From NCBI GenBank assembly GCA_963699545.1, contig CAVOUE010000001.1, positions 1-48,748 on the forward strand: DNA of 48,748 nucleotides. Reading direction: 5' to 3'. The notes under the pieces were generated by a model that saw only the letters and a program-made list of their open reading frames with translations, ran no database searches and was not told where the DNA came from. Positions 14,428 through 33,928 of this stretch are shown here, piece by piece. The first letter of the stretch is position 1. The number at the start of each line of letters is the position of its first letter. The DNA is from Nitrospirota bacterium (lineage in GTDB: Bacteria > Nitrospirota > Thermodesulfovibrionia > Thermodesulfovibrionales > UBA9159). The position numbers and the translations under genes were made by a program.

Positions 14428-15556
14428 TCAGAAAGCCCTGTACCCGCTCCTTGATTGCAAGGTGGTCCGGGGAATGTTCGGCACATCCCTGTTCCCGGGA
14501 ATGGCCAGCACATGAATGAACCTCATACCGTCATGGGAATGTTTCAGGCTATTCACCAGGTCCTTTTTCCTGCTCACCTTATACGTATCCCGTATCCCGA
14601 ACCCCTTTGCCAGGGATTCCAGGTCCACACAGGAACCGGTGAGCGTAGGCTGGTCCCCCGTTGAACCGTAAGAGGCGTTGTCTATGCCGATAATCGTAAG
14701 GTTCTTCGGCGAGCGAGATGCAGCGGTAGCAAGGGTCCCCGGATTCATGAGGATGCTTCCGTCACCATCGATCACCACAACTTCCTTATCCGAGGTGAGC
14801 GCAATTCCAAGCCCTATGGGCGTCACCATGCCCATGCTCCCAGCATGTAAAAATTGGAGGGCTGGTCTTTTAAGAAATACAGCTCCTTTGACGGGATTCC
14901 CAGATTGCAGACCACCACCTTTGAATTAGATCCGGCGCAATAGTACTCAGTATCTCAAAACGGGTAAGTCTGGGAGAAGATACCCTCTGCACAATGCCCC
15001 GTTCATAATCAGCTCCTGCTTCCTTCTTATGACTCCTCACTTCCGGCTTCTCATTCCTCACCCCTGAATCCTCCCACAGGGCCGGACTGAGAAGGAATGC
15101 ATGGAGGGTATTCTTCCTGTATACAGCCTCAAGTCTCTGGCCGATGCCCTCAAGATCATCTCTTGTGGCAACAGGGGAATGGGGTATACCCGCGGCCTTC
15201 AGAACACCCGGGAGCCTCTTTCCCATGGGCAATTGTGCCTCGATCTCTTCTTTATAGATCCCCCTCCAGCTCACAAAAATGGCCAGGGGCAACTGGTAGA
15301 ACCCTGTGAGAGACAGAAGAGCATTGATCATGTTCCCGATACCTGAACTCTGGACAAACATGGCAGGCTTCTTCCCTGAAAGCGCAGCCCCTGCGCTGAT
15401 GCCCACACCCTCCTCCTCCCTTGTGAGCGGCAGATGAAAGAACTCTTCACCCACACGCCGGAGAAGACCTTTAATCTTTTCGCAGGGAAGGGACGAGGTG
15501 AAATCAACCTTCGCCTTCCTGAAGATTGCAATCAGTTCTTCTTCAGGGCCTCGCAT
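14428..15556 (-). CDS. comDE: Fused sulfopyruvate decarboxylase ComD-ComE (ThDP-dependent; frameshifts near 14925 and 14845)
   Basis: ComD motifs SLPCEKIK, LTREEEGVGISAGA, VQSSGIGNMINAL and EAQLPMG. The same frame runs into the ComE start (TRFEIL); shifted frames give VCNLGIPSKEL..NFYMLG-SMG and IDGDGSILMN..DN. Confidence 0.88.
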
Positions 15557-16788
15557 AATAATTCCTCAATCTCCCGCTCGGTAACCCTCTTTGAGACAAA
15601 ACAAGGCTCCACCTCATAGGTTTTCTTATGTCTTAATAACCTCTTTTCCCCACCGCCGGTGACATTCAATAGGACAGTATCCCTCCCTTGTACTGTCCCT
15701 GTGCTCACTGCCTCCATGAGGGTGGCAACCGCCACACCCGCCGCAGGCACGATATCTATGCCTTCGCTCTTTTCAAACGTATCCATTGCGCCAAAGACTG
15801 ATTCATTCCTGATGCCGTACATCCTCCCCCCTGTTGCCTTGAGCCCGTCGTAGACACCTCCCCTGATGGAGTATGCCGGGTAACGGGTGGAGAGCACTCT
15901 GGTGGTGATCTCGCCTATCAGCTCTGGCCTCAGGTCTTCGGGGAATAGGTTCCTGCTGTCCTTCTCCCATGCCTTGAGCATGGGGGCAAAGGGAAGGTTC
16001 TGTGCAAGGTGGAGGACCGGTAACCGGGATCCAAATCTTCCGTCCTTAAGGAACCTTTCCGCCATCTCCCACACCCCTATGGCGCCGGCACCGCTTCCCA
16101 CTGCCTGAAAATAGTGCTCAGGGAGCCGTCCCATGGCCAAGACCGCTTCCAGCAATACCACGCCGAGGCCGTCTCTCTTTGCGATATTTTTCACCCCGCC
16201 CTCAAAAGGGAACCCCATGGTAAGGGCAACCCTCTTTGCCACATCAATGGCGTCTGCATAATCACCGTCTCCTACCACCAGGGTCGGAATTTTCGGTGTA
16301 CGTTCGAGATACCACATTTCGGTGAGGCACATCCTCGGCACTACGATGATTGCAGGGAACCCTGTGAGCGCAGACAGGTGGGAAAATGCCCGTGCAGTAT
16401 TTCCGGCAGAGGCCACGGTCAATCCGTCCAGATTATTCTCCATGGCGTTCTGGAGCACCACCGCTGCCTCGAACTCCTTGAAGGTACAGGTATCGAGGGA
16501 CCCACCCCTTTCAGGCCAGTACCCGTTGAAGGCTATATAAAGGTTCTCAAGGCCGAGGCGCTCCGAAAGGCCCTCTGATCTGTATACCACAGGGCCTGAT
16601 TGATCAAAGTGCGGTGTGTGTACCGGGAGCCAGTTAAACCTCCATATGCCCTTTCCTGCATCGTCCCTGAAACCCTTTTCCTGGTACTCTGTGACGAGGA
16701 GCGCGTCCCTGCAGTGCTCGCAAAAGGCGCAGAAGGTCTCTTTCAGCTCTCTCCCGCACTCTGTGCATCTGAGGGTAAAATGGCTCAT
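15532..16788 (-). CDS. Cysteate synthase (PLP-dependent, threonine synthase-like)
   Basis: N-terminal CxxC..CxxC, YIAFNGYWPERG, TCTFKEFEA, ASAGNTARAF, EGGVKNIAKRDGLG, YFQAVGSG, QNLPFAPM, YPAYSIRGG and LLNVTGGG; adjacent to comDE as in Methanosarcina. Confidence 0.9.
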   Translation of the reverse strand: MSHFTLRCTECGRELKETFCAFCEHCRDALLVTEYQEKGFRDDAGKGIWRFNWLPVHTPHFDQSGPVVYRSEGLSERLGLENLYIAFNGYWPERGGSLDTCTFKEFEAAVVLQNAMENNLDGLTVASAGNTARAFSHLSALTGFPAIIVVPRMCLTEMWYLERTPKIPTLVVGDGDYADAIDVAKRVALTMGFPFEGGVKNIAKRDGLGVVLLEAVLAMGRLPEHYFQAVGSGAGAIGVWEMAERFLKDGRFGSRLPVLHLAQNLPFAPMLKAWEKDSRNLFPEDLRPELIGEITTRVLSTRYPAYSIRGGVYDGLKATGGRMYGIRNESVFGAMDTFEKSEGIDIVPAAGVAVATLMEAVSTGTVQGRDTVLLNVTGGGEKRLLRHKKTYEVEPCFVSKRVTEREIEELLCEALKKN

Positions 16789-17990
16789 GCAATGAGACCT
16801 GATATAAGCTCCATGATGTCTGTGATCTTCACCTGTTTCTCATACCCCTCCATGGCCTCATTTACCTTAGCATAGCATGCAGGACAGCTTAATATAAGCC
16901 TGTCCGCCTTTTTTTCCACGGCCTCGTCAATGGAGAGCCTTCCCATGGCTATGGAGTTCTCGTGGAAGACTTTCCTCGCTGCGCCCCCTGCACCGCAACA
17001 CCTCGAGTTCAGGCCGTGTCTCTCGAACTCCAGGAGCTCAACCCCGGGAATACTTCTCAGAACACTCCGGGGTTCTTCAATCACTCCCACCCCCCTGCTC
17101 AAATAACATGGGTCGTGGTATATGAGCCTCTCACAAAGCTCCTTCCTGATTATGAGGGTGCCCTTCTGCAACGAGTCAGAAACAAACTGGGTGATATGCC
17201 GTACTGCAAAGGGGAGCTCGCTCCCGTACAGGAGGGGCCAGTCCCGGGCCATGATATTGACGCAACAGGGACAGGAGCACAGGAGCAGCTTCACACCCTT
17301 TGCCCTGTATCCGTCCACCAGCCGCCTTGTCAGGTCCTTAAGCATTTCGTGCTGTCCGGTGATGAAGAGCGGAAACCCGCAGCACACCTCTTCCTCAGGC
17401 GGGAGCATGGCAAACGGCTCCCCGATGGCACCCAGGACGAGGACGTCTCCCCTCACCATGGGCTGCGCTTCATATGCGCCGGTACACCCCGCATAGTACG
17501 CGATGTCCGCCCTTTCGGCAATCCTCACCTTTTCAGGGAACCATGGAGCATATCTCTCCAGCGGGGGCTTCTCATAAGGGTTCCCTGTCTCTGCGATGGC
17601 CTTGGGGAGGTCTGCCTGCGAACCGATAGGTCCGAGCCCTCTCCTCACCATCTCCTTCCTCAATGCCGGCCAAAGCCTCTGAGTAAAGATGCCCACAGAG
17701 CAGCTCTCCCCGCATCCTCCGCATGTGGTGCATTCATAGATCGCCTTCACAAAATGCTCCGTGAGTTTCTCATCAACTTTTCCAGGTCCAAAGAGCCTTG
17801 CCTTCAGTCCATGGCTGGCCTTTATGAATTCCCTGAACATGCGGATTTTCTCAGGAGGAGATATGGTGGGGTTTCCGGTCACATCCTGGACCGGACAATG
17901 CTTCAAACATTCGCCGCACTGCGTGCATGCGTCCAGTTCCATGAACTGCATGGGGGTCAGCTGGTTTGTGAAAGGGTTTTCCTTCCTCAT
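16785..17990 (-). CDS. HdrD/GlpC-like (Fe-S)-binding protein with two CCG domains
   Basis: CTQCGECLKHCP, CTTCGGCGESC, EVCCGFP..SCPCC and YHDPCYL..RCCGAGG..SCPAC. ATGA overlap with cysteate synthase. Confidence 0.9.
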   Translation of the reverse strand: MRKENPFTNQLTPMQFMELDACTQCGECLKHCPVQDVTGNPTISPPEKIRMFREFIKASHGLKARLFGPGKVDEKLTEHFVKAIYECTTCGGCGESCSVGIFTQRLWPALRKEMVRRGLGPIGSQADLPKAIAETGNPYEKPPLERYAPWFPEKVRIAERADIAYYAGCTGAYEAQPMVRGDVLVLGAIGEPFAMLPPEEEVCCGFPLFITGQHEMLKDLTRRLVDGYRAKGVKLLLCSCPCCVNIMARDWPLLYGSELPFAVRHITQFVSDSLQKGTLIIRKELCERLIYHDPCYLSRGVGVIEEPRSVLRSIPGVELLEFERHGLNSRCCGAGGAARKVFHENSIAMGRLSIDEAVEKKADRLILSCPACYAKVNEAMEGYEKQVKITDIMELISGLIA

Positions 17991-18129
17991 TCCCTTTTGT
18001 ACCGGAGAAACAGGATTCCTCCCGTTCGGAGGTCAGTATTTTCCGGCTTCCACTATGTTAAAATAGCAAGTATACCCTTGTAAATGATATCAATATGAGA
18101 CTGGGCATAGGCACCCATCACGTGTAATC

Positions 18130-18963
18130 ATGATAGACATACCTGTGGTCAATTATCCGAAACCTTGGCTTCTGTTCTGGGTTGCAGATGCGTTGGCCGT
18201 GGGTTATTTTTATTACGCCCTGTACCGTAAATGGCAGGGCTGGTCCAGGGGAATAAAGCGGGTGCCGAAGGAAAAGATTCCATGGAGCCGGGTGTTTAGG
18301 ATCTGGCTCTCCGAGGTCCTGGGACAGCGGCAATTGTGGGGGCTTTCCCCTTTCCGCTGGGTTACCCACCTTTTCATCTTCTGGGGTTTCATCGCCCTTT
18401 CGCTGCTTTCCCTGTCCTCCTTTATCCTCAAACGCCTGGGCGATTTCGGCATAGACAGCGGCCTCGCACATTTTTTTTCCCGGGAAGAAGGATACCTTTG
18501 TATCAAGCTTTGGGGTGACGGCTTTGGAGTGCTCCTTCTCATGGGATTGCTGATTGCAGGAGTAAGACGATTTTTCATCCGCCCACCACAACAGAGCAAC
18601 AACCAGATGGACCTGTTCCTGATATTCTTCCTCTTCTGGCTCACCCTCTCGGGCTTCATCCTCGAAGGAATACGTCTTTCACTGATACCCCATGAAATAG
18701 CCCGCTATTCATTTTTTGGGCAACTGTTCATGCCAGGAGGCATCCCTTCCCCTAAAGAGGTGTATCCCTGGCTCACCGCCTGGTGGGTGCTGCACGCGTT
18801 CAGCTGGATTGCCTTCTTGGTATACTTGCCTCACAGCAAGCTGATGCATAGCATCCTTGCCCCTCTGGTCATCGCAATGAATGCAGTTGAGGAGCACGAA
18901 AGGGAGGACATCTATTGGCCCGACATCTCAAAACACAGGGCGACAAAATCGCCCAGGGACTGA
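18130..18963 (+). CDS. NarI/HdrE-like membrane cytochrome b anchor
   Basis: Multiple TM helices; RWVTHLFIFWGF, LTLSGFILEG and LHAFSW..YLPHSKLMH. Confidence 0.85.
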   Translation: MIDIPVVNYPKPWLLFWVADALAVGYFYYALYRKWQGWSRGIKRVPKEKIPWSRVFRIWLSEVLGQRQLWGLSPFRWVTHLFIFWGFIALSLLSLSSFILKRLGDFGIDSGLAHFFSREEGYLCIKLWGDGFGVLLLMGLLIAGVRRFFIRPPQQSNNQMDLFLIFFLFWLTLSGFILEGIRLSLIPHEIARYSFFGQLFMPGGIPSPKEVYPWLTAWWVLHAFSWIAFLVYLPHSKLMHSILAPLVIAMNAVEEHEREDIYWPDISKHRATKSPRD

Positions 18964-20177
18964 CCCGCAGACAACTCATTGAACTGGAGTCCTGCGCGCG
19001 GTGCGGTGACTGCCAGGTCTGGTGTCCTGTCTATGCCCAGGATCCCCGTGAATGCATCACTGCCCGGGGCAAGATGAGCGACCTGCGCCGTCTCGTGAAC
19101 AGTGGCCTGTCTGATCCTGAGAAACAGGACTTCCTCCAGTCCCTTTATGAATGTTCAGCCTGCGGTCAGTGCCACGTAGTCTGCCCGGTACGTATCAATA
19201 CCCCTGAACTCTGGGAACAGGCACGCCATTCCCTGGTCAGCGCAGGAATACCCCAGCCGGAAAGCCAGATGAAACAGCTCGCCACGATAAAGGAATTTAA
19301 CAATTCCTATGGCAAACCCCAGCAGGAGCGGGACGTGTGGGCCAGACTCGCATGGGAATCGGGCCTTCTCTTGAGGCCGCTCACGGTCTGGCAGGAGCGG
19401 ACCGCCCCTGTCCTCTATTTTGTGGGCTGTACCGCGAGCTTCGATCCCGAAACACAGTTCGTTGCGGTCCAGTCCGCACGTTTGTTGCAGGAGGCCGGGG
19501 TGGAATTCTCGATACTGGGAAAAGACGAGCCCTGCTGTGTGAGCAAGTTAAGGCGTATGGGAGACCTGGATTTCAGCGCTGAAGCGCAGAAACGCATGGT
19601 CCAGATTACCGCACTGGGAGCCGGGAAAGTGGTCGCTTCCTGCGCCGGTTGTTTTAAGGGACTGCACTCAGACTATCCAAAACTCCGGCCTGAATTCCGG
19701 CCTGTCCTGCATCTTACCCAATTCTTGGATGAACTCATCACAGAAGGCCGTCTGCGTTTAGCACATGAGGTGCCGATGGTAGTTACCTATCACGACCCGT
19801 GCCATCTGGGCCGCCACACTCAGGTGTACGATGAGCCGCGCCGTATTTTACAGTCTGTTCCTGGGCTGAAGCTGGTGGAGATGCCGCGCCACCGGGCCTT
19901 TTCCTCCTGCTGCGGCATGGGCGGAGGCCTGAAAATGGCCAATCCGGAGATCCAGCGTAAAATGGCTGCTGACCGGATTCGCGAGGCCGAATCCACAGGT
20001 GCTGAGGCAATTGTCACCCCGTGCCAGACCTGCTATCTCGGTCTGCTCCATGGCATTGAGGAGGCGGGCTCCTCAATGCGCGCCTATCACCTGAATGAGA
20101 TCCTTGCCCTTTCTGTCTGCCCTGAGGTCACCCGCGAAGAGGTAATAGGAACCTTTGCCAGGGCAGTCCCCCGGTAA
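18915..20177 (+). CDS. HdrD/GlpC-like (Fe-S)-binding protein
   Basis: CARCGDCQVWCP, CSACGQCHVVCP, EPCCVS..SCAGC and YHDPCHL..SCCGMGG..PCQTC. Confidence 0.9.
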   Translation: MARHLKTQGDKIAQGLTRRQLIELESCARCGDCQVWCPVYAQDPRECITARGKMSDLRRLVNSGLSDPEKQDFLQSLYECSACGQCHVVCPVRINTPELWEQARHSLVSAGIPQPESQMKQLATIKEFNNSYGKPQQERDVWARLAWESGLLLRPLTVWQERTAPVLYFVGCTASFDPETQFVAVQSARLLQEAGVEFSILGKDEPCCVSKLRRMGDLDFSAEAQKRMVQITALGAGKVVASCAGCFKGLHSDYPKLRPEFRPVLHLTQFLDELITEGRLRLAHEVPMVVTYHDPCHLGRHTQVYDEPRRILQSVPGLKLVEMPRHRAFSSCCGMGGGLKMANPEIQRKMAADRIREAESTGAEAIVTPCQTCYLGLLHGIEEAGSSMRAYHLNEILALSVCPEVTREEVIGTFARAVPR

Positions 20178-20191
20178 TTTTGCCAGGCTGT

Positions 20192-20887
20192 TTATCTCTT
20201 CTCACCATGCATCAGTCTCTTTAATTCCTCCTCCCTCAGTGTTGCATCCAGCATAACAAGGGGTGCAGCAACTATATGGGTGGGGACATAGAGGATAAGG
20301 ACAAGGACGAGGGAGAAATGCACAACAAAGAGGAAAGGGAGCGGCACTGACTGGGGGCTGAGGCCCAGGATCCCCAGCACAAAGCCCTTGACCGCCACAA
20401 GGTCTGCCTTAAAGACGGTTCTCAGAAGAATCCCGGTCACGCTCACAAGGAGAAGGAGGATGAGAAGAAAGAAGTTGTATGACGGAAAATACCCTTTTTC
20501 CCCGCTCAACTTGATTGAGAGGATATAGATGAGCGAGAGAGGGAGAAGATAGCCTGCAAATATCCCGAAAGGCTGCAGAAGAGCGACCCATCCCGGCACA
20601 GGATTCAGAAAAAAGACCAGATGTCTGAGCACGACCAGAAAAAAAGTACAGTGAAAGAGCCACTCACCAATCCAGAGCAGGTCATTTGTCCTGAGGAGAC
20701 GTGAGAGAAACAGTATATCGCCAGTAATGTTCAGAACCAGGCGAGGAGTTAAGGGAGGAGGAGGGGGAGCATACCCCCTAATAGTCTTTACTGCCTTCCA
20801 TAGTGTCAGAAGCCTGCCACACAACAAAACAAGAAAAATCCCCAGGACCGCATAGGTGCTCAGGGTCAAAAAAATTCCCATCCTCAC
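20192..20887 (-). CDS. DsrM/NarI-like membrane cytochrome b subunit
   Basis: DILFLSRLLR, WLFHCTFFLVVLRHL (two His 10 residues apart) and VVHFSLVLVLILYVPTH. Confidence 0.8.
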   Translation of the reverse strand: MRMGIFLTLSTYAVLGIFLVLLCGRLLTLWKAVKTIRGYAPPPPPLTPRLVLNITGDILFLSRLLRTNDLLWIGEWLFHCTFFLVVLRHLVFFLNPVPGWVALLQPFGIFAGYLLPLSLIYILSIKLSGEKGYFPSYNFFLLILLLLVSVTGILLRTVFKADLVAVKGFVLGILGLSPQSVPLPFLFVVHFSLVLVLILYVPTHIVAAPLVMLDATLREEELKRLMHGEKR

Positions 20888-20953
20888 CTTGTTATTCTCA
20901 GCTCTTTTTCTCTCTTATCATGTGACGCGGAAGCAGCAGTCGCCTCATATCTC

Positions 20954-21766
20954 CTAGAGGTCCCGCACATGGGTGAACATGCCGTTCATGCTCCTTGACT
21001 TTTCCCTCTCTGCCGCAAGAAACAGAAGGATCTCTTTCCTTATGGCGTTCAGTTCAGTGCTTGTCCTGTCCCGCGGCCGGGGGATATCGACCCTCAATAC
21101 CTTTCCTATCTCAGCAGGCCGCGAGGTGAAACAGATGATCTCGTCACCGAGGAATACCGCTTCTTCAACATTATGGGTGACGAAAATCACTGTCTTTCCC
21201 GTCTTCTCCCATAAATGGAGCAGGGCCACCTGCATATAGTTCCTTGTCTGGCAGTCAAGGGAAACAAAAGGTTCGTCCATGAGCAGGACTTTGGGTTCCA
21301 CCACCAGCGCCATGGCCAGAGCCACCTTCTGCTTCATTCCCCCTGATATCTCTTTCGGGTAGAAGTCCCTGAAGTCATGAAGCTCAACGAGCTCCAGGGC
21401 CGCAAGTGCCTTCTGCCTCCTCTGCTCATGGGGAACCCCTGCCACCTCAAGCCCGAACTCCACGTTCCGAATTACGGTCCTCCATGGAAGGAGCGCCGGC
21501 TCCTGGAAGATATACCCGATCTCCCTCACCGGTGATGTGATTTCCTTATTCCCGAGGAGAACCTTCCCTCTGTCAGGGCTCTCGAGACCCGCGATCATCC
21601 TCAGAAGCGTTGTCTTCCCGCACCCGCTTGGACCGATCACACACACAAATCTTCCTTCAGGGACTGTGAACGATACGTCCCTTATGGCGTCGATCCTTTC
21701 GCCTTCTGTGGGACTGCTGAATGATTTATGGAGGTCAATGACGTTCAGTTCCAAGGCTATCTCCAC
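20954..21766 (-). CDS. SsuB/TauB-like ABC ATP-binding protein
   Basis: GPSGCGKTT, ISGGMKQ, LLMDEPF and VTHN. Confidence 0.93.
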   Translation of the reverse strand: MEIALELNVIDLHKSFSSPTEGERIDAIRDVSFTVPEGRFVCVIGPSGCGKTTLLRMIAGLESPDRGKVLLGNKEITSPVREIGYIFQEPALLPWRTVIRNVEFGLEVAGVPHEQRRQKALAALELVELHDFRDFYPKEISGGMKQKVALAMALVVEPKVLLMDEPFVSLDCQTRNYMQVALLHLWEKTGKTVIFVTHNVEEAVFLGDEIICFTSRPAEIGKVLRVDIPRPRDRTSTELNAIRKEILLFLAAEREKSRSMNGMFTHVRDL

Positions 21767-22543
21767 CTCAGGATCTTATGTTCCATCTTCCTGATGCCAA
21801 AATCCATTGCGTATCCTATCATTCCTATGACAGCCATTCCCGCGATAATCTGGTCAGGCCGCTGGATGTCCCGTGCAGTCATGATCATATACCCGAGTCC
21901 GTACCCGCTCTTTACCCCCGTGAATTCCGCGGCCACAAGGGTCATCCATCCGATACCGAGGGCGATCCTCACTCCGGTAATAATGGAAGGCATGGCTCCG
22001 GGCAGGAGCACCTTGGCAAAGAGCGCTCCTTTCTTTGCGCCAAGAATTATGGACAATTCGATGAGTCTCCTGTTGATGGAGAGGACCCCTCCGATGGTAT
22101 TCAGCAGTATTGGGGAAAAAGGCCCCCAGAAAAATGATGAAGGACGAAGACCTGTCTCCGATGCCGAACCAGAGGATTGCAATAGGAACCCATGCCAGAG
22201 GAGGGATCGGCCTTATCATTTCGACAAAGGGGGTGAGGTAATTCCTTGCCCGTGTCCAGTATCCCATGGCAATGCCCAGAGGCAGGGCGGTGACAATGGC
22301 TATGGCTACGCCGCTCAAGACCCTCTTCAGGCTTGCTGCACAGTGCCCGGCGAGCGTGTAGCCCGGGGGAAGCCCCTGAGTGAGGAGATCCATGAAACCC
22401 AGGATTATATTCACAGGGGAAGGAAGTCTGTTACCGGGGATAACCCCGGAAAAGGACAGCACCTGCCAGATCACCACAACACACAAGATTGGAAGGTATC
22501 TCATAGACTTGCAGACCCGTTGAACAATCTTTTTCCCCCTCAA
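21757..22543 (-). CDS. SsuC/TauC-like ABC permease (frameshift near 22115)
   Basis: RPIPPLAWVPIAILWFG in ORF 21854..22543; LPGAMPSIITGVRIALGIGW..AAEF in ORF 21757..22182. Confidence 0.9.
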
Positions 22544-22576
22544 TCACATTTGAGACAGCTCAAGTCGCTTAAGACA

Positions 22577-23533
22577 TTAGTGGGCGACATCCTTAATCGT
22601 CCTGAGATCAAGGTATTCCCGCGCAAACTCATCCACATTGATTGACTTCACGTACCCGAACTTCAGAAGATATTTCACATACTCCTTAATGTCATCTTCC
22701 TTTGCGAAATAGTGGTACTGGATGTGGCTGATGGCCTCACGCACAGTGGCCTCATCCATTCCGGTATATTTTATGCCTATCCTGAGGGCATCTTCAGGAT
22801 TTTTCTTTATATACGCAGTTGCCTTCACATGGGCCTTCAGAAAGGATTTTACCACCTCAGGGTTCTCTTTATAAAAGCTCTCATCAACTACCACGACGCA
22901 GCAGGGATGGTCCTTCCATATCATGGGTGATGAAATGAGGACCCTCCCGATTCCCATGGTGACCGCCTTTGACGGATGGGGTTCCCATGCGATAAAGGCA
23001 TCGATCTGTTTTGCATTGAGCGCCACAATCATCTCCGGGGGCTTTATCACGATGATGTTCACCCTCTTTGGGTCTACGCCCGCTGCTTCCAGGGCCTTTC
23101 TCAGGAGAAAATCCTGGACACTTGAATATCCCGGAATGGCAACGGTCTTCCCCGCGAGGTCTTTTACCTCTCTTACCGCTGAATCCTTCCTCACCACCAC
23201 CGCAGACCCTTCCGCATTTGCCAGGGCCACTGCCCTGATGCGGGCTGACCTGTTTGCAAGCCCGGTGGCACTGGGCGCAACACCGAGATACCCCATGTCC
23301 AGACTCTTGGAAGCAAAGGCGGTCATCTCTTCAGGACCGGCGTTGAATATGCCGGCAATTTCAACATTGACCCCTTCTTCCCTGAAAAACCCCTTGTCCA
23401 TGGCGACCCAGGCAGCAAGGTGATGGAGGTCGTTCCTCAGATACCCGAGGCGGACTTCCCTGGGAGCGGCCATGGAAACGAGCGCGCTCAGAAGGACCAT
23501 GACAAATAATGCCACCACCACAATCTTTTTCAT
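22577..23533 (-). CDS. SsuA-like substrate-binding protein
   Basis: Sec signal peptide; VRLGYL..LHH, DLAGKTVAIP, AWEPHP and WKDHPCC. Confidence 0.92.
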   Translation of the reverse strand: MKKIVVVALFVMVLLSALVSMAAPREVRLGYLRNDLHHLAAWVAMDKGFFREEGVNVEIAGIFNAGPEEMTAFASKSLDMGYLGVAPSATGLANRSARIRAVALANAEGSAVVVRKDSAVREVKDLAGKTVAIPGYSSVQDFLLRKALEAAGVDPKRVNIIVIKPPEMIVALNAKQIDAFIAWEPHPSKAVTMGIGRVLISSPMIWKDHPCCVVVVDESFYKENPEVVKSFLKAHVKATAYIKKNPEDALRIGIKYTGMDEATVREAISHIQYHYFAKEDDIKEYVKYLLKFGYVKSINVDEFAREYLDLRTIKDVAH

Positions 23534-23596: not shown

Positions 23597-23929
23597 CTAT
23601 GTGTCCGAGCCCTTCTCCGTCTTCACAAATGTGATGCTCACGTCCCTGGGGATGTTCAGCCCTGCTTCCACTTCAAGGGCTTTGAGGATCCCCGAAGGCA
23701 CAGGGCAGGCGACGTGTCTCAGGCACGTCGCCCCCTTTTTGTATACCGGGTTGTCCTGAAACCTCTTGAACGCGTCCATCATGGTGAGCTCAGGGATCTC
23801 CTTCCCCAGCTTTTCCGCCATCTCGCATTCCGTCGTTATCCTCACTGAGAAGATCTTCCCTTCTTTCTTCTCAACCTCAACAGTGACCGGCATTCCGCAT
23901 GCCCCGGGGTTTATTATCACCTTTGTCAT
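23597..23929 (-). CDS. Small Cys-rich protein (DUF6951-like)
   Basis: PGACG, TECE and CLRHVACPVPSGILKALEVEAGL; family recognised from memory. Confidence 0.7.
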   Translation of the reverse strand: MTKVIINPGACGMPVTVEVEKKEGKIFSVRITTECEMAEKLGKEIPELTMMDAFKRFQDNPVYKKGATCLRHVACPVPSGILKALEVEAGLNIPRDVSITFVKTEKGSDT

Positions 23930-23948
23930 AACGATACGGGTTTTCCTC

Positions 23949-25940
23949 TCACCCCTTTATGCTCGATGCGATGGGCGCCTTCTGCTCTTCCAGCATCGCC
24001 TTGAGATTTGGGTATTTGTCCTTCATGTGAGGAATATGCATGGCCTGCATGAACTCCTTCTCAAAAGCCGGCTCTGTCGCGATCTCCACAAACTGCACCC
24101 ACCGCGCACGCTCGTCCGCCTCGCGACGTTTATCCTTATTGATGAGCGCCATTATTGCGCCATCTCCCGCAGCGTTTCCGACAACAATGACCTTATCGAT
24201 GGGCACATCGGGGAACATGCCGAGGGTCAGGGAGGCCTCCCTGTCTATATGGCTGCCGAATGCACCGGCAAGTTCGACCCTGTCGAGCTTTGTGACCCCC
24301 ATCTTCTGCATCATCAATTTCGCTCCGGTATAAAGAGCTCCCTTCGCGAGCTGGAGCGCGCGGACATCTCCCTGAGTCACGGTGATATCGGCATTAATAG
24401 ATGTTTCTTCGGCCCATGCGAGGACGTACTCAGGTTTTCCGTCAACACCCGATCTCACCCTGGTTGTCCCCAGATTCATCACGAATTTGCCACTCTTGTC
24501 TATGATGCCCGCTTTAAACATCTCGGCAATGACATCGATAATCCCTGAACCGCAGATACCCTTGGCGTTGATCTTGCCTTCGATGTGGGTATGCCAGTCT
24601 GCCTTTCCGATTACCTTATACTGTGGTTCCCTCGTCTCCGCATCGATCTTCACCTTTTCAATTGCGCCCGGTGCCGCCCTCATTCCGAATTTAATCTGGG
24701 CTCCTTCAAAGGCTGGCCCCGTCGCACAGGAAGTGGAGCAGACCCTGTCCTTGTTTCCGAGGAGCAGTTCACCGTTTGTCCCGATATCGATGACAAGCAC
24801 CATCTCATCCTGAAAATACTGTTCCTGGGCTATAAGAACTCCCACATTGTCTGCGCCGACGAAACCGGCTTCGATCGGCAGTACATGGATGTAACCGGCA
24901 GGATTGATCTTCAGACCGAGGTCACTCGCTTTTATATTCAGGGAACGCTGAACAGCGGGGATAAAGGGGGAACGGCCGATGTAGACCGGATTTAATCCGA
25001 GGAAGATGTGATGCATGGCCGTATTGAAAACGATGGTGAGATCATCGATTTCATATCCCGGGTGAGGACCGTCTTTCTTGATTTCATTCACGACCTTTTC
25101 GATGATCTCGTTCAGTCCGGAGATTATGGCGTTCTGCATCGTTTCAAGGCCGTCGGGATTCGATCATTGCATAGGTTATGCGGGACATGACGTCTTCGCC
25201 GTAGGGGACCTGGGGGTTCATCATGGATTCTGTGTTGATCACCTTTCCGGTGCTGAGGTCGCAGAGGTAGCCGACGCAGGTAGTGGTCCCGATGTCGACG
25301 GCAAGGCCGTAACATACGTCTACATGGCCGGGCTCCACCTTTATGATCTCCCTGTCCATCCATATGGTGAAGGTCGCTGTCCATTCCCCTCCCGCAGGGC
25401 ATCCTGGAGTGTCCTCAGTGCAAAGAAATCAAAGGTAAGGTCCCTGAGGCCGTAGTCTTCTTCAAGCGCCTTGACCACCCGCTCGTAGTCACCGGTGGTC
25501 ATGTCGTGGAGTTTCGGAGCGGTAAATGTAAGGGTATATTTCTTTACCGCAGGATCGAGGGCTATCGAAATCTCCCTTGCGACCTTGCGGACTACCTGTT
25601 TGCCTGCCCTCGAACGCTCCGGGACAAAGATCTTCAGGTCGCCCCGTATTTCGCATGAGCAGGCGAGCCTTATGCCCGGTCCGTCTTCGGGTTTTATATG
25701 TTTCAATTCGTCTTCTGAGGGAAGGGGAGGGAAGATATGGGACATACTCGACTCCAAATTGTCTTTTTCGGAGTAGCCCTCCTCAATTCTCACCTTGCAT
25801 TTTCCACAGACCTTCTTGTTGCCACAGAGCGCCTCAAGGTCCACACCGAGGGCCTGGGCAGCCTCGAGGATGGTTTTCCCTTCCTCGATCTCTCCCCGCC
25901 TGCCCGCAGGCTGAAAAATCACTTTGTGTGTATTAGCCAT
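23949..25940 (-). CDS. Corrinoid protein reductive activase (RamA/RACo, ASKHA/DUF4445) with N-terminal 2Fe-2S domain (2 frameshifts)
   Basis: CGNKKVCGKC..RLAC in ORF 25341..25979; AVDIGTTT and NPQVPYGEDVMSRI in ORF 25144..25359; GFVGAD, IDIGTNGE, CATGPAFEG, GICGSG, LAGAFG and GNAA in ORF 23949..25139. Confidence 0.92.
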
Positions 25941-26101
25941 GAATCCATCCTCCTTAATTTCTTGATGTACGTTTGGCAACTTGAATTCACCAGGGAGTAA
26001 ACAGAATCGAGAAGCGAACAGAGAATACTACACAGCCTTTTCTTATTCTCTTCTATGGATGTTCTCTTCAGTCCTCTATCACCCTGCTTACTGCATGCTG
26101 C

Positions 26102-26752
26102 CTACTTCACGTTGCCTCTCGTGCGTCCGTTTCTGGAAAAGGGACAGATCGTTACGCAGAGCCCGCAGTTGGGCTTTTCCTCAAAGAGGCGCCTCTCCTT
26201 CTTCAGGGTCCTGCACTTTTCATAATGTACGATCTTCCTGAGCGGCTCTCCCCGGGACCATGGCCTACCCGTAAAAGCCCCTGAGGGACAGTGTTTCACG
26301 CAGAGATCACATTCCCCGCACTGTGATTCGCTCACGGGAGTGTCAGGCACCAGGGGCGCATTGGTAAGGACAGTTGCCCATGAGAGCTTTGAACCGTACC
26401 GTTTATTGATGAGCAGCCCGTTCTTCCCGATCCACCCGAGTCCGGCGCATGTCGCGGTAGTCTTATGGCACACGAGGTGGTAAAGCTTGGCGATATACTT
26501 GTCATCTATCCTGTCAGAGTCGGGGGGGATGGACAAGCTTCTGAAGCCCTTTCCCTTAAGCCACCTCTCTGCCAGCTGCTGGAGTCTCTTAAGGAGCTCA
26601 ACAGTGTCCCTGTTCAGACCCCTGTTGACGGCAAGGGCGATCCCCCTGTTCAGGTGGACGATCTCTTGCGAGAGGGCTTCCGTGATATCACCCACACCCA
26701 CAAGGGTCGCGCCCTCCCTCTTTAACTGCTCTTTCAGTGATGAGGCATTCAA
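26102..26752 (-). CDS. Epoxyqueuosine reductase (QueG)/RDase-like Fe-S protein
   Basis: HKTTATCAGLGWIGKNGLLI..YGS, CGECDLCVKHCP and CGLCVTICP. Confidence 0.8.
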   Translation of the reverse strand: MNASSLKEQLKREGATLVGVGDITEALSQEIVHLNRGIALAVNRGLNRDTVELLKRLQQLAERWLKGKGFRSLSIPPDSDRIDDKYIAKLYHLVCHKTTATCAGLGWIGKNGLLINKRYGSKLSWATVLTNAPLVPDTPVSESQCGECDLCVKHCPSGAFTGRPWSRGEPLRKIVHYEKCRTLKKERRLFEEKPNCGLCVTICPFSRNGRTRGNVK

Positions 26753-26760
26753 TGGTGCGC

Positions 26761-27446
26761 TTACTTTTTCCCGGCCTTTTCGTCCCTCAATTTCTTGAGG
26801 AAGCTCACCATCTTGATCGCCTCCTTGAGGGCATTGCTCGCATCTTCGGCATACCCGTCAGCACCCCATTTGTCCGCGAGCTCCTTGGAGGTCGGAGCGC
26901 CTCCGATCATGATCATGCAGTTGGGGTTCTTCGCCTTTATCTTTTCGATGACCTTCGGCATGCCGACCATGGAGGTGGTCATCATTGCGGACAGACAGAC
27001 AAGCTCAGAATCTGTCCTCAGCTGCTCGTCGACGAACTTGTCCAGGGGAACGTCCCTGCCGAGGTCATACACCGTAAACCCGGCAACATCGAACATCATC
27101 TTCACGAGGTTCTTGCCGATGTCGTGAACATCTCCTTCGACTGTCCCGATAACGACGGAGCCCTTCACCCCCAGGTCCATCTGCTGGCAGTGGGGCTTGA
27201 GGATCTCGAGCCCGGCGTAGAGGGCATCGGCGCACATCAGGATCTCGGGGACGAAATATTCCTGCGCCTCGAAGAGGCGTCCGACCTCTTCCATCCCGGC
27301 CACGAGTCCGTCGAAAATCGCCTCATTGGCGTCGAGGCCCGCATCCAGAGCCTCCTGTGCGCCTTCTTTGCATGCGTCCTCGTCGTACTGAATTACGGAA
27401 TTTTTCAGTTTGTCAAGATCTCTTTCTTCTTCGCTTCGTCAGCCAT
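26761..27446 (-). CDS. Corrinoid (cobalamin-binding) methyl-carrier protein, MtaC/MttC-like (frameshift near 27410)
   Basis: GTVEGDVHDIGKNLV (DxHxxG), LSAMMTT, IGGA and GADGY. N-terminal cap domain MADEAKKKE..YDEDACKE starts in a TAATG overlap. Confidence 0.93.
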
Positions 27447-28471
27447 TATTTTTTACCTCCATATTTTTTTATTTCTTCCATCATCGCGATCATGTTCTGG
27501 GGCGGCACAGTCGGCCAAATGTCGCAGCCCGGCCAGACCGCGCTGACGCCGTCGTCGATGCACTTCCTCATCGTGGTGCTCACGAGATTCTCTTCGCCAG
27601 ATACGAGGACGTTGTACGGGTCGTAGTTGCCGAAGATGAGGGCATCCTTTCCCAGCTTCTTTCTCGATTCTGCAACGTCGTTCTTCTGTTCGACGCTGAT
27701 GGCCGTGGGCCCGGCCTCCATCATAAAGGTGACGATATCGTTCGTCTTTCCACATATATGGAGCACCGAATTGATCTTTATTTCACTGATCACTTTCTTA
27801 AGTGGCGGCATGATGAGGTTTTTGAAGACCCGCGGGCTCAGGACGTCGCTGGTGGCACCCATCTCCCTTACGGTTATATAGTCGGCGCCCGCCTTTTCAT
27901 ATTCTTTTGCGACGATGATAATGGCGTCCGCCATCACGTCAAGGAGTTTAGCCACCTTGTCGGCCTTCTTGAACGAGAGCTTCAGCAGGTCATTCAACTC
28001 CATTATCTGGCCGGCGAGGGTAAAGGGACCGAGGACATACGACCCTATTGCCACGTCGTTGCCGATATCGGCCTTCAGAAGCCTTATCGCCTCTCTCAGA
28101 AGGGGGACCCTGCCCCGGGAGGCGAGATCTGCGGGTAGTGAGATGTCCATCTCGTCCTCGTTGTGGATCAGCTTTTTCTTAATCGTCGGGTAGAGTATGC
28201 CTTCCGCATGGGGATACACATTGATCACGCATCCCATAGCCTCGGCCTCGACGCAGAGGTCAACGGGGACGACCCCGCATTCAAAGCCGAAGAGCTTGTA
28301 GGTAGAAGCCGCGGTTTCCGCCATCTGCTTTGCGTCAAGATGGATGCCGGCAAATCGGTAGCCGAGCTTGTTGATACCGGTTTCGGTGACGTTCCCCATG
28401 CCGCTGAAACAGGGGACCCTGTCGATCGCCTCCTTTTTGAACAACTTGATGACTCTCTCTCGTGAGTTCAT
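27446..28471 (-). CDS. MtaA/CmuA-family (UroD-fold) methylcobalamin:thiol methyltransferase 1
   Basis: DLCVEAEAMG, GPFTLA and Zn motif LHICG...PGCD. AAGGAG RBS before MNSRERV at 28471. Confidence 0.9.
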   Translation of the reverse strand: MNSRERVIKLFKKEAIDRVPCFSGMGNVTETGINKLGYRFAGIHLDAKQMAETAASTYKLFGFECGVVPVDLCVEAEAMGCVINVYPHAEGILYPTIKKKLIHNEDEMDISLPADLASRGRVPLLREAIRLLKADIGNDVAIGSYVLGPFTLAGQIMELNDLLKLSFKKADKVAKLLDVMADAIIIVAKEYEKAGADYITVREMGATSDVLSPRVFKNLIMPPLKKVISEIKINSVLHICGKTNDIVTFMMEAGPTAISVEQKNDVAESRKKLGKDALIFGNYDPYNVLVSGEENLVSTTMRKCIDDGVSAVWPGCDIWPTVPPQNMIAMMEEIKKYGGKK

Positions 28472-28502
28472 TAACTTGAATTCTCCTTTCTCTATCATAT
28501 CG

Positions 28503-29463
28503 TTATTTTCCTTTTTTTCTTCCGATCCGCCTTCCTGGATTTTGGTGATGAAATCGCCGAAATACTTCCGTAGCGGCAGCTCCGGGTTGTCGAAGATGAC
28601 GCCGGTTTCGTCGAAGACGAGCGTCGAAAGAAGCATATGCGCACTCGCAACCGCGGGGAAGACCCTCGGGGCCGTGACGGCCGGACCGCAGAAGTTGAAG
28701 TCCGACCAGAGTGCGGACGACATGCCCTGGACCACCGCGTCCATGGCCTTGAAGCCGTCGAGTCCCCAGATCGCCTTTATCTCCTTCCACATATGTGTCC
28801 CGTTCGAATATGCCCCGCCGCAGGGAAACCCGTGCTTCTCCTTTATCATCCTGTTTGCGACGAGGGAAAACGAGGTCGACGGCAGGTTCATCACCGAGGT
28901 GTCGACGATAATGGTAGCGAAACCGTCCGCACCCTGCGCCAAGGATCGATTCAAGGGATTTCACCCTTCCGGCAGGGGACTGGTCCTGGTCGTCAAACGC
29001 CTGTATCACAACATGTCTTGATCCCGAGGTCTTTCAGCCGTTGAATCTGTCCTTTGATGTCCTTGTCCCACGGTGTTATGCTGTTGTATAGGAATTTGTT
29101 CTGTACCCCCAGCTTTGATACATATTCAGTGGCCTTCGCCCTCTGTTCTGCCACCCACATGTCGATGCCGAAGGGCATGTCCGTTGTCTCGAGGTAAAAG
29201 TCTATATATATCTTGGCCTCTTCCGGTGAATTAGCCACCATGGCCACCATACCGGGAACGCCGGTCACCTTGGAAAGTTCCTCCTGCTTGCGGATGATTT
29301 CCTTTGCCCTCTGACGGTCGAAATTACCCTTGCGGTCCTGCACGATCTGGTCCTTGTTGTGGAACATGGAGGAGATCATGAGGGGCGGATTCTCGCCCGG
29401 CTGGCCGCCTACCTTTATGCCGTTAAAGTCAAAAACCTTCTGTTCTTTCTTAAATGTGAACAT
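28503..29463 (-). CDS. MtrH-like (MtgA/CmuB-type) methylcorrinoid:pterin methyltransferase (frameshifted)
   Basis: MFTFKKEQKVFDFNGIKVGGQPGENPP, LYNSI, IIVDTSV, IKEKHGFPCGGAYSN and DFNFCGP..VFPAVA across ORFs 28993..29463, 28503..29009 and the 5' part of 27446..28954. Confidence 0.88.
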
Positions 29464-29618
29464 AGCGCTCCTTTTTCGAAAATTGTGGTAAACTAAGATA
29501 TCGTTTCACTTACGGGCAGTCCTTATTCGCAGGAATAGGCTGCCCTCTTTTTGACGCGGCCATCGCTGCCCCATTGCGTAATGATAGGTGATCGCGCGGA
29601 GCGGGTTGATTCGTTGCT

Positions 29619-30063
29619 CTAGAACACACCGTGATCGAACTTCGGCTGCGGCAGGTATTCCCACTTCTCGCCTTTTCTGTACTTTGCCTCGATATCAAGG
29701 CACTTGAGGGCGTATTCGAACGCGTAGGGGATGCCCGGGCCGCCCGGCACAAAACCCGCCAGGATCATTCCGACTGATGCGGCCTCGAATATCTCGCCTG
29801 TGGTCGCGCCCGCGTTGATGGCGGGGATCACATGAATGATGCATCTTGGTGAGCAGTAGCCGACACCGCCCGACATGAACATCAGTTCCTTGACTTTCTT
29901 CGACAGCGCACCGTCGCCGAAGATACTCGCATAGAAATCAGCGAAGGTCCTTCCCGGGTTCAGGGGTGACCGTGTTGATTATCTGGAACATCCTCGGCAC
30001 GAAACCGCACTGTTTCTTCATGTACTCGTTCACTTCTTCTGCAGTCATCTTTTTCTCTGCCAT
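29619..30063 (-). CDS. Carboxymuconolactone decarboxylase/AhpD-family protein (frameshift near 29950)
   Basis: MAEKKMT..GFVPRMF, then GALSKKVKELM..CSPRCIIH..AGATTGEIFEA; GGAGG RBS before 30063. Confidence 0.85.
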
Positions 30064-30219
30064 CTTTGTCTCCTCCCTGACATTTGTTTTCCGGCCTCAT
30101 GGCCAGAAGCTGCTTGATAAAATCAAAAAATCCCATTTGCACCTCCCCTTTTTAAGGGTTTCTTTCCTTCTCCCTTGCTGCTGCGCCCTCACCTCCCTTC
30201 CCGCGACGCTCTCTTGCGT

Positions 30220-31273
30220 CTAAGTACTTCCAGTTAAATGCGACATCATGGAAGACCTTAAGGTTTTCATACGGAATAGTCGGCGGTATGTCGCAGCCCG
30301 GCACGAGCACGAACCCGCCGTCCTTCCCCGCGATCTCGATCACCTCCTTGCAGGCCGCTTCGACTTCTGCCGCAGTCTTGTTGAGAAGTACATGGACCGG
30401 GGCAACATTCCCTCCGAAGCACATCTTGCCGAAAAGGACCTCTTTGGCCTTGGCGATGTCGACCTTCTGGTCGAAGAATATCACGCTGCAGCCGGTATCG
30501 AGGAACTGCTCGAGCCGGTCGCTCGTATTGCCGCATATATGGAAAATGGTATGCGACATTCTTCGATTTCGCCCAGTCGCTCATTTTCTTGAGCGGAGGG
30601 ACCGCGAATTGCGCCATCTGCTTCGGGTTGATGAGGTCGCCCGAGGCGGTGGGATCGGCGATGCTCAGGCACTCGAGGCTCGCCGTCGGCCACCAGGGGC
30701 TCGTAGAGGTGTATGAGCAGGTCAGCGCAGAAATTCACCATCTTTTCTACGAACGCCGGCTTCTTAAAGGTATACTTCATGAAAGTCTTCTTCACCTACG
30801 AACCGGGCGGCGAGGGTGAAGGGGCCCCAGCAGGTCATGGTGACCAGATATTTTTTCCCTATCTTTTCCTTTACCCGCCGCGTTGCTTCCATGACCGTCT
30901 TGATGACAGGGTCCTTGATGGACATCCGTCGATGTCTGAGCTTTTCGATGTCCTCTTCGGACTTGACGAAGTGGATGGTGAGGTCCGGTGCGCCTATCTC
31001 ACGGTATTTTATCCCGACTCCGAAGTCTTGCCGAGGGACGACGCATGGAAGTTGTTGTATCCGGAGCCCACATAGACGACATCGCTCCTGATCCTGCTCC
31101 GCCTCGGTGACGCACATGTCGGCCATCTTGTCGGCATTCTTGCGCAACTCCTCGAAGGTCGATCCGTAGTCCTTGATGCTCCACATCCCGCCTCCGAAGA
31201 GCGTGACCGGTACTCGTTCGGGTTTGCCTCTTTTCAAAAGCCTTAAGATCATTTCTCTCGGTGTCATAGACAT
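30220..31273 (-). CDS. MtaA/CmuA-family (UroD-fold) methyltransferase 2 (several frameshifts; 3' end approximate)
   Basis: MTPRE..PERVPV and WGPFTLAA in ORF 30764..31273; FHICGNT, GGNVAP and PGCDIPP in ORF 30152..30559. Confidence 0.88.
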
Positions 31274-31292
31274 CGTTCTCCTCCTTTGTTCC

Positions 31293-31634
31293 CTAAGATT
31301 TTACCAGACTGATAAAATTATGAATCACTTTCTTGAACTCTTCAAGGTCAACAGGTGTCTTCAGGCTCAGGGCCCCGCCGGTATAAGTCTCATTCCCCGC
31401 CACAATAATGGGCAAGTCCGGCGAAATGCTCCTGATGATCTGGACCGCCTCTTCTGCGGAAAGACCGAAGGCGCCCGAATCGATAATCACCGCACCGTAA
31501 TTCCCCTGGAGGACCATGCGGACCGCAAGGGCCGGATGGTCTGCGATTTCGACAGTAAAGCCTTCATCCCTTAATATCCCGTAGAGGTCTTTTACCAGAA
31601 GAGGGTTATGTGTACATAACAGAATTTGCGCCAT
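31293..31634 (-). CDS. Stand-alone response-regulator receiver domain protein
   Basis: MAQILL..ILRDEGFTV..AVIIDS..PDLPIIV..KTPVDLEEF. Confidence 0.75.
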   Translation of the reverse strand: MAQILLCTHNPLLVKDLYGILRDEGFTVEIADHPALAVRMVLQGNYGAVIIDSGAFGLSAEEAVQIIRSISPDLPIIVAGNETYTGGALSLKTPVDLEEFKKVIHNFISLVKS

Positions 31635-31646
31635 GGAGAGAGAAAG

Positions 31647-31662
31647 AGCAATATTAATGCCA
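31647..31662 (-). promoter_or_regulatory. Sigma54 -24/-12 promoter of the methyltransferase operon
   Basis: Minus strand TGGCATTAATATTGCT = GG-N10-GC. Confidence 0.82.
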
Positions 31663-33905: not shown

Positions 33906-33928
33906 TAAGAAAAAGGAGGAGGTAAGAC

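Follow-up and report, generated by a model that had tools for sequence, protein, structure and literature searches.

The 48,748-nucleotide stretch of Nitrospirota DNA analysed here, which we call the window (GenBank assembly GCA_963699545.1, contig CAVOUE010000001.1), contains at positions 14428-31662 a block of genes for methyl transfer, electron transfer and steps related to the synthesis of coenzyme M (CoM). This block is a real, conserved 12-gene sigma54 operon of dsr-bearing Nitrospirota, found over two classes, and it almost certainly works as one functional unit. The operon is widespread and apparently undescribed; it combines known kinds of enzyme in a new way and lacks a last step. 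We tentatively read it, with slightly less than even confidence, as an inducible module in which methyl groups from methylated sulfur compounds pass to tetrahydrofolate, home-made CoM serves as the thiol partner, and an HdrD/NarI pair makes or recycles CoM via the quinone pool. The core genes follow one another in the order MtaA2, CMD/AhpD-like, MtrH-like, MtaA1, corrinoid protein, QueG-like Fe-S protein, RACo, DUF6951, NarI/DsrM-like, HdrD-like, cysteate synthase and fused ComDE. In the window, the operon and its accessory genes are laid out as follows:

31648-31662, minus strand: sigma54 -24/-12 promoter element; same motif upstream of other copies.
31293-31630, minus strand: small receiver-like open reading frame (ORF) at the operon head, accessory; weak PF00072 match, orthologues at the same position.
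30224-31273, minus strand: MtaA2, UroD-fold methyltransferase of the MtaA/CmuA family, several frameshifts; intact orthologue 182 bits to TIGR01463, below cut-off; His-Cys-Cys in 21/21.
29619-30075, minus strand: CMD/AhpD-family protein, frameshifted, start not fixed; PF02627, invariant Cys-x-x-His.
28514-29463, minus strand: MtrH/MtgA-like methylcorrinoid:pterin methyltransferase, two frameshifts; PF02007, PDB matches 8Z9U, 9QTP and 6SJ8.
27446-28471, minus strand: MtaA1, methylcobalamin:CoM methyltransferase-like; PRK06252 over cut-off, 4AY7 at E 7.5e-47, His-Cys-Cys in 49/49.
26761-27438, minus strand: corrinoid protein, MtbC/MtgC-like; TIGR02370 206 against a cut-off of 215.
26102-26752, minus strand: QueG/RdhA-like protein with two 4Fe-4S clusters; eight Cys kept in 48-49/49.
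23949-25940, minus strand: RACo ATP-dependent corrinoid activase, two frameshifts; PF14574, PF17651 and AcsV model.
23597-23929, minus strand: DUF6951 small Cys/His protein; PF22263, with C11, C35, H72 and C75 in 52/52.
20954-23533, minus strand: SsuA/NitT-family ABC importer (binding protein, frameshifted permease, ATPase), accessory; TIGR01728 over cut-off.
20192-20887, minus strand: NarI/DsrM-like membrane protein; weak DsrM match, four invariant His in 55/55.
18130-20177, plus strand: second, inverted pair of NarI-like and HdrD-like genes, accessory; PF02665, PF02754.
16785-17990, minus strand: HdrD-like protein, 2x4Fe-4S and two intact CCG domains; stop codon overlaps the cysteate synthase start.
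15532-16788, minus strand: cysteate synthase; TIGR03844 469.8 against 324.9.
14428-15556, minus strand: fused ComDE sulfopyruvate decarboxylase, two frameshifts; ComD TIGR03845 over cut-off.
39984-43789, minus strand: PAS/GAF histidine kinase and NtrC-type activator, probable cognate regulator, outside the first-noted span; NtrC orthologues beside the operon elsewhere.

Conservation was assessed in three samples, namely the 80 nearest cysteate synthase loci, 41 relatives and a 201-genome sample of the phylum Nitrospirota, and the 12-gene core was defined by clustering the ORFs of the 80 loci. Upstream sequence of 5 kb or more is available for 62 loci, and 57 of these show methyl-module genes beside cysteate synthase; among the 50 loci with 9 kb or more, 45 have MtrH, MtaA1 and the corrinoid protein together. 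In the phylum sample, cysteate synthase occurs in 33 genomes, MtaA1 in 38 (37 by search and one frameshifted copy found on region inspection) and the HdrD1 orthologue in 33; the genomes with cysteate synthase have MtaA1 in 33/33 and HdrD1 in 32/33 cases, and neither cysteate synthase nor MtaA1 is present in 163/201. Among the 41 relatives, cysteate synthase and MtrH are both present in 22, both missing in 15 and discordant in 4, with cysteate synthase alone in three genomes (63-83% complete) and MtrH alone in one; G004 (77% complete), scored as having neither, carries ComDE and HdrD1. Outside the window's class, 25 carriers fall into one family, with the same gene order in 7/7 regions examined and dsrB in 5/5; our guess for this class, based on parts of PMC11033732, is UBA9217. 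The synthesis and methyl-transfer halves, whose co-occurrence elsewhere the preliminary description of this DNA had left as a check, are thus found together and syntenic across two classes. Several families of the window's own order are without carriers (e.g. 0/13 and 0/10). Beyond the phylum, individual records carry the labels Rokubacteria, Acidobacteriota, Alpha- and Betaproteobacteria; these may be mis-bins or transfers.

The promoter that had been proposed upstream of the block is conserved as well: the -24/-12 motif recurs upstream in 16/19 and 9/13 other copies, compared with 0.007 expected per 700 nt. The PAS/GAF histidine kinase and NtrC-type activator are the probable cognate regulators of the operon, and orthologues of the window's NtrC (61-72%) adjoin it in 7/30 loci. 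An expression look-up in three related sequencing runs returned short pieces only, mostly of a conserved corrinoid motif of other organisms, and says nothing on expression. A GAF-sigma54 activator also lies in the window region 1000-11384, together with an NMT1-type ABC transporter with several permeases and a molybdopterin oxidoreductase in pieces; its orthologues adjoin the operon in 4/30 loci.

The block was examined by listing its ORFs and scoring these and the stop-to-stop translation of 14428-31662 with Pfam and NCBIfam models. Within the window, cysteate synthase (TIGR03844), ComD (TIGR03845), the importer's binding protein (TIGR01728) and MtaA1 (PRK06252) exceed curated cut-offs. Every gene class named in the preliminary description was recovered, and about where it had been placed; its parts list had left out three core genes (CMD/AhpD-like, QueG-like Fe-S and DUF6951), and the NarI/HdrD genes form two pairs, one of them inverted. 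Six window genes are frameshifted, namely MtaA2 (about six times), CMD, MtrH (twice), RACo (twice), the permease and ComDE (twice), and intact orthologues were therefore taken for family tests. The window is contig C1 of bin G000 (3.04 Mb, 86.9% complete, 5.1% contaminated). The entire contig, ksgA included, duplicates parts of contigs C3, C5 and C12 of the same bin at ~70-90% DNA identity, and it probably comes from a second, related, mis-binned population of lower coverage. Two copies in one genome are therefore doubtful, and the genome-context results for G000 describe the lineage rather than the exact cell.

The host is bacterial, as had been supposed, and the contig is not archaeal. Its flanks are bacterial, and 78 of the 80 nearest cysteate synthase loci are titled as Nitrospirota lineages (the closest two Thermodesulfovibrionales), with one Rokubacteria and one 'Bacterium'. 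Genome G009, which has the closest cysteate synthase (91%), shows an identical local gene order and contains dsrB and CdhC. G000 itself carries dsrB and Wood-Ljungdahl genes, namely CdhC (split over two pieces) and matches to MetF (three) and Fhs (two); among the 41 relatives, dsrB is present in 39/41 and CdhC in 37/41. The earlier remark that mcr genes are missing from the window extends to the bin, as the mcrA family (PF02249) gave no match in G000 (86.9% complete), where positive controls scored and to which this search was confined.

In the synthesis half of the operon, an intact ComDE orthologue exceeds the models for ComD (183 against 147.95) and ComE (225.3 against 221.5) and stays below the cut-off for phosphonopyruvate decarboxylase. 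The gene had been called a fused ComDE: the window copy can be read as such only across its two frameshifts, and the fusion is intact in the copy on G000:C3 and present in 77/80 loci. Judged from these families, the operon's enzymes very probably make sulfoacetaldehyde. In Methanosarcina acetivorans, according to passages of PMC12068725, deletions of cs and comDE affect CoM supply, the cysteate aminotransferase is a non-specific housekeeping enzyme, and ComF/MMP16 is the main CoM synthase, whose loss can be masked by sulfide. The ComF family (PF01837), a check set out in the preliminary description, was not found in G000 or in five near-complete carriers of family f19, with positive controls scored in these searches; it occurs in 1/41 relatives and 10/201 phylum genomes, none of them cysteate synthase carriers. 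The earlier claim of an archaeal-type CoM route thus holds for the family membership of cysteate synthase and ComDE and not for the canonical last enzyme. By its gene content, the block does not belong to the complete archaeal CoM pathway, though it resembles the first half of that pathway. Although ComF/MMP16 is missing in carriers, we consider CoM the probable end product.

Other fates and origins of the synthesis genes were examined. Sulfonate breakdown through Xsc found no support, as Xsc was over cut-off in 0/5 carriers, and sulfoacetaldehyde is therefore not obviously degraded. The conserved genes of the operon include neither a sulfoacetaldehyde reductase nor a transaminase. ComA was considered as an alternative entry and rejected, as it occurs in 2/12 genomes, stand-alone and once without ComDE. 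All 10 Nitrospirota loci fall in one clade of 16 rows with support 100 in a cysteate synthase tree of 108 rows, built by a quick method and rooted at the midpoint, from which most locus copies and any proteins not 380-480 aa long were excluded. Taxon names were available for two of the 10 relatives looked up, Methanomassiliicoccus (47%) and Phycisphaerae (44%), so no donor is claimed; neither the tree nor these relatives support an archaeal one.

In the methyl-transfer half, the His-x-Cys...Cys zinc set is kept without exception in MtaA1 and MtaA2, and in MtaA1 its residues align with those of 4AY7, a solved methylcobalamin:CoM methyltransferase. This set is the zinc site of S/Se-methyltransferases, and O-demethylases replace the Cys (PMC10418091). 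By this motif, both families are of S-methyltransferase type, which supports the earlier call of MtaA-type enzymes, with sulfur compounds as putative substrates. MtaA1 exceeds PRK06252 and TIGR01463, and MtaA2 is below all family models when intact orthologues are scored; MtaA1 lies much nearer to MtaA (4AY7, E 7.5e-47) than to CmuA, identity to the latter being low (~25% for MtaA1, range 22-26%). The intact MtrH-like orthologue is over the cut-off of PRK00979 and below those of MtrH and MtgA, and the protein matches stand-alone MtrH/MtgA structures; it is of the methylcorrinoid:pterin type, in agreement with the MtrH-like methyltransferase named earlier. Stand-alone MtrH-like proteins methylate pterins and not CoM, as parts of PMC8630106 describe. 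Optional inserts in the operon are FolD (12/80 loci), a chemoreceptor (6/80), the importer (4/80) and the second NarI/HdrD pair (8/80); FolD, chemoreceptor and importer would fit a folate-linked, external substrate. The QueG-like protein has a weak reductive-dehalogenase match far below cut-off. A role as methionine synthase was considered through PF02574 (MetH), which is absent in 41/41 genomes, with or without the operon, and this comparison is therefore not discriminating. The chemoreceptor insert (L091:6512-8062 and five other loci) is a methyl-accepting chemotaxis protein whose C-terminal domain is unassigned.

Eight Cys of ferredoxin type and two complete CCG motifs are present in the HdrD-like protein (Cys in 67-68/68), and its Atlas clusters are mixed bacterial and archaeal. 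The four invariant His of its NarI/DsrM-like partner suggest a di-heme b protein. With a mean column identity of 79%, the CMD protein is strongly conserved, and it has Cys-x-x-His (C98/H101) in 37/37; its fold search gave weak CMD-family matches only, none at E <= 0.001. The importer had been linked to CoM scavenging, a link that found no support: it is accessory, its nearest named relatives outside Nitrospirota are Deltaproteobacteria, and orthology to the methanogen CoM transporter is unsupported by the nearest relatives. Converging on the comDE end, a stand-alone SsuA-like binding protein (11/80 loci; L055:12969-13907) and an unknown 199-aa protein (24/80 loci; L060:5997-6596) were also seen.

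Natural variants separate the parts of the operon. Cysteate synthase, ComDE and HdrD1 are missing from genome G012 (91% complete), which carries the methyl module and the importer together with MMP16 over cut-off; this single genome would fit a need for CoM and hints that HdrD/NarI stands in for ComF. Genus g60 (G068, G076, G118; L170-L174) has the methyl module with a divergent NarI/HdrD pair (40-45%) and a sensor/NtrC pair directly upstream; the COG1900 gene of this genus occurs throughout the family, with a score like that of the homocysteine enzyme. In two other MtaA1-only genomes, contig ends fall inside the operon, and in G011, G013 and G014 the two halves lie at separate sites. In G012:C95 (L132:7002-11578), a CCG protein lies between the MMP16 gene (TIGR03287, 401.7 against 363.95) and a second, partial MMP16 gene, next to a UPF0280-like gene, a molybdo-oxidoreductase and a tripartite transporter. 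In G001 (L133:15836-16104), an importer-bearing operon that is whole in other respects carries a cysteate synthase lacking most of its central part, through either a deletion or an assembly error. The Rokubacteria-labelled contig L114 has cs-comDE and a binding protein without the methyl module.

In the mechanism we propose for these sulfate-reducing Nitrospirota with Wood-Ljungdahl genes, cysteate synthase, a housekeeping aminotransferase and ComDE would produce sulfoacetaldehyde, the family membership of the first and the last being established. Sulfoacetaldehyde would become CoM by reductive thiolation, carried out by the translationally coupled HdrD/NarI with quinol electrons or non-enzymatically in a sulfide-rich cell. 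MtaA2 and MtaA1, whose type is clear, would exchange methyl groups among CoM, the corrinoid activated by RACo and a methylated sulfur compound, for which methanethiol, dimethyl sulfide, methyl-CoM or the like are candidates. Tetrahydrofolate would then receive the methyl group from the MtrH-like enzyme, for oxidation or assimilation by MetF, FolD, Fhs and CODH/ACS. The freed thiol would be oxidised to the disulfide at HdrD/NarI with menaquinone, the AhpD-like protein taking part in thiol-disulfide exchange. Thioether-to-folate methyl transfer is uphill and the reverse, folate-to-thiol transfer, downhill, so that oxidation of the freed thiol to the disulfide would pull the forward reaction. A catabolic direction of methyl flow seems rather likely. 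Established are the gene identities, a single regulated unit, zinc sites of the S type and, by family and FolD insertion, the link to folate. We infer this direction, the substrates and the roles of HdrD/NarI, CMD, the QueG-like protein and DUF6951 from the genes. A bolder form of the proposal, which we consider doubtful, is that archaeal-route CoM with a new quinol-driven HdrD/NarI last step would be the hub of an MCR-free oxidation to CO2 of methanethiol, dimethyl sulfide or methyl-CoM released by methanogens and anaerobic methanotrophic archaea (ANME), in competition with methanogens in freshwater and subsurface sediments.

Several observations weigh against this proposal. Thioether-to-folate methyl transfer does not chemically need CoM, and ComF/MMP16 (COG1900, PF01837) is present in 0/33 cysteate synthase genomes of the phylum sample, where positive controls scored, so that no known enzyme finishes CoM. 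The HdrD/HdrE-like pair of the preliminary description stands as far as 2x4Fe-4S, two CCG domains and a NarI-type four-His partner are concerned; orthology to methanogen HdrD/HdrE is not supported, as the HdrD-like protein is below every equivalog cut-off (best model TfrB, 176 against 385) and its predicted model (predicted local distance difference test, pLDDT, 86.5) best matches the fold of the electron-transfer protein EtfD (Z 30.4), followed by HdrB (Z 23.1). Neither MtaA1 nor MtaA2 reaches the equivalog cut-offs of MtaA and MtbA, and there is no methanogen among the named relatives, a minority, in the best 120 binding-protein matches. CdhC was not found in the carriers G001, G002 and G018, nor dsrB in the carrier G036. 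Orthologues of cysteate synthase, ComDE, ComA and the importer were not found in the three g60 genomes, two of them 94-97% complete, so the methyl module can exist without any of these. Finally, the counted genomes are kin and not independent, and the counts overstate support.

Some of these points are shared by a rather unlikely alternative, in which the operon joins two linked, separable modules: a CoM-free demethylation of thioethers (methanethiol, dimethyl sulfide or other) to corrinoid and folate, and a conversion of sulfoacetaldehyde to another sulfonate or thiol or to a sulfite sink, with HdrD/NarI as an electron conduit. The g60 variant, the lack of ComF in carriers, the three genomes with split halves, the EtfD-like fold and the existence of MtrH-like proteins in bacteria neither making nor using CoM (parts of PMC8630106) agree with it. 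However, MtaA1 is kept in 33/33 cysteate synthase genomes even where the halves split, the genes share one promoter and overlapping stop and start codons, and neither Xsc (not over cut-off in 5/5 carriers) nor a conserved reductase or transaminase offers sulfoacetaldehyde another route. Methyl flow could also run in reverse, from CO2-derived methyl-tetrahydrofolate through the corrinoid to CoM, sulfide or methanethiol, so that under sulfate shortage electrons or sulfide would be disposed of in methyl-CoM, methanethiol or dimethyl sulfide. Folate-to-thiol transfer being downhill, the full Wood-Ljungdahl pathway in most carriers and the reversibility of FolD and MtrH-like enzymes would allow this, which we nevertheless find unlikely: the operon has no ion-pumping Mtr subunits, hence no evident energy gain, and the chemoreceptor and importer inserts point to uptake.

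The core AhpD-like gene and the upstream OsmC gene would also suit CoM as a low-molecular-weight redox buffer, kept reduced by AhpD-like, OsmC and HdrD/NarI proteins while the methyltransferases repair methylated thiols or selenols or supply methionine, as proposed for mlp clusters. Overexpression of comDE is reported to shield methanogens from oxidative stress (PMC12713407), and the MetH domain is missing in 41/41 genomes. This is missing in carriers and non-carriers alike, however, mlp clusters are by definition without the folate methylase that the operon has, and its patchy presence and sigma54 control also leave such a role decidedly unlikely. A halomethane-demethylating cluster of the Cmu/Mec kind is highly improbable; the operon's parts list, with its pair of UroD-fold methyltransferases, corrinoid protein, MtrH-like enzyme and FolD, resembles that of the pCMU01 cmu region, and the QueG-like protein has its reductive-dehalogenase match, but that score is far below cut-off, identity to CmuA is 22-26%, CmuA lacks the H-x-C-G motif of the operon MtaAs, and cysteate synthase and ComDE would be left unexplained. 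The many frameshifts and the duplication of other G000 contigs could suggest a chimeric or archaeal contig or a dead locus. There is next to no chance of this, and for the system as a whole it is refuted, given intact operons of the same order in dozens of independent Nitrospirota assemblies, including the single-contig G024, bacterial flanks, and gapped alignments outside the block too.

Comparison with known systems places the operon between several of them. It shares adjacent cysteate synthase and fused ComDE, over NCBIfam cut-offs, with the phosphoserine-dependent CoM route of Methanosarcinales (cs MA3297, comDE MA3298, MMP16 MA3299). In contrast to that route, carriers have no MMP16/ComF or other COG1900 protein, HdrD/NarI-like genes lie beside cs instead, the synthesis genes are under the methyltransferase promoter, and the host is a bacterium without mcrA (searched in G000). 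Its HdrD/NarI pair resembles Methanosarcina HdrDE in 2x4Fe-4S and two CCG domains beside a NarI-family membrane protein with four His, but has no MCR or known coenzyme B (CoB) partner, and its fold is common to EtfD and LutA. With MtgBCA, CmuABC, Mec and archaeal MtoABCD it has in common an MT1-type enzyme, a corrinoid protein, an MtrH-like pterin methylase and RACo (plus FolD), although CmuA is a fused methyltransferase-corrinoid protein and the operon has separate genes at 22-26% identity. We know of no sulfonate-cofactor synthesis genes or HdrD/NarI pair in those clusters. His-Cys-Cys enzymes of the MtaA family, a cognate corrinoid protein and sometimes a transporter are also shared with Methanosarcina MtsAB, MtsD/F/H, MtpCAP and MtaA, as far as passages of PMC7374477 describe them; the operon proteins stay below the equivalog cut-offs, however, and the operon's methyl group would end on folate via the MtrH-like enzyme and not in methane. 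Type 1 mlp clusters (Kountz and Balskus, PMC10418091) likewise combine at least two MtaA-like proteins, a corrinoid protein and an activase of the Ram/RACE kind in co-oriented genes of non-methanogenic anaerobes with S/Se-methyl chemistry, but their definition bars a folate methylase within 20 kb, whereas the operon has an MtrH-like gene between its two MtaA genes. The bacterial Xcb route of alkene oxidisers, as portrayed in parts of PMC9457059, also provides CoM, inferred here from genes, in a non-methanogenic bacterium; it differs in its enzymes (phosphosulfolactate-type start) and its aerobic epoxide metabolism, and ComA-like genes are rare and stand-alone in the genomes searched here.

CoM is known from methane- and alkane-cycling archaea and, by another route, from aerobic alkene oxidisers. 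If our proposal is true, anaerobic bacteria would put CoM, made by an archaeal-type route and linked to S-methyl transfer, to a third use. We know of no enzymes assigned to the oxidation of dimethyl sulfide and methanethiol by sulfate reducers, and the operon supplies concrete candidate genes for methyl-sulfur oxidation in an abundant, mostly uncultured lineage. It suggests bacterial processing of methylated sulfur compounds without methane formation. With ComF missing, the disputed last CoM step is open to experiment, since mutants of M. acetivorans in cs, comDE and MMP16 are available for complementation. Even without CoM as product, a 12-gene operon over two classes with three uncharacterised core genes represents unexplained metabolism. 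Single genes of the operon are already annotated in databases, and a full-text literature search, whose reach excluded supplements and subscription papers such as Graham 2009, found no paper describing the operon. The main text of PMC10418091 makes no mention of Nitrospir-, cysteate, comD, HdrD or MtrH, and 'coenzyme M' is absent from the main text of three Nitrospirota-focused papers. Parts of PMC12019592 report cysteate synthase in one bacterial metagenome-assembled genome, and a paramo preprint, in the passages concerned, screened comE solely to exclude methanogenesis.

Bin G000 is rich in corrinoid methyltransferases beyond the operon. G000:C9:1-18000 (L157) carries an MtaA1 paralogue (54%), several UroD-fold proteins, a corrinoid protein, a RACo-like protein, Fhs, a pterin-binding methyltransferase and two MetF, and G000:C3:823000-845000 (L158-L159) carries MtaA1/MtaA2 paralogues with corrinoid and RACo genes near cobalamin genes. 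A separate MtgA-like cluster lies at G000:C10:73000-76000 (L134). At the start of G000:C5 (L160:2354-11184), QueG-like and RACo orthologues are followed by putative hdrC, hdrB and hdrA and a MetV-like gene (PF12225), which may be a variant tied to soluble HdrABC, the hdr names being read from translations. In the window itself, OsmC-like, CobW-like and rhodanese genes lie upstream of the promoter (31794-35137), and relatives also have OsmC and CobW next to the operon.

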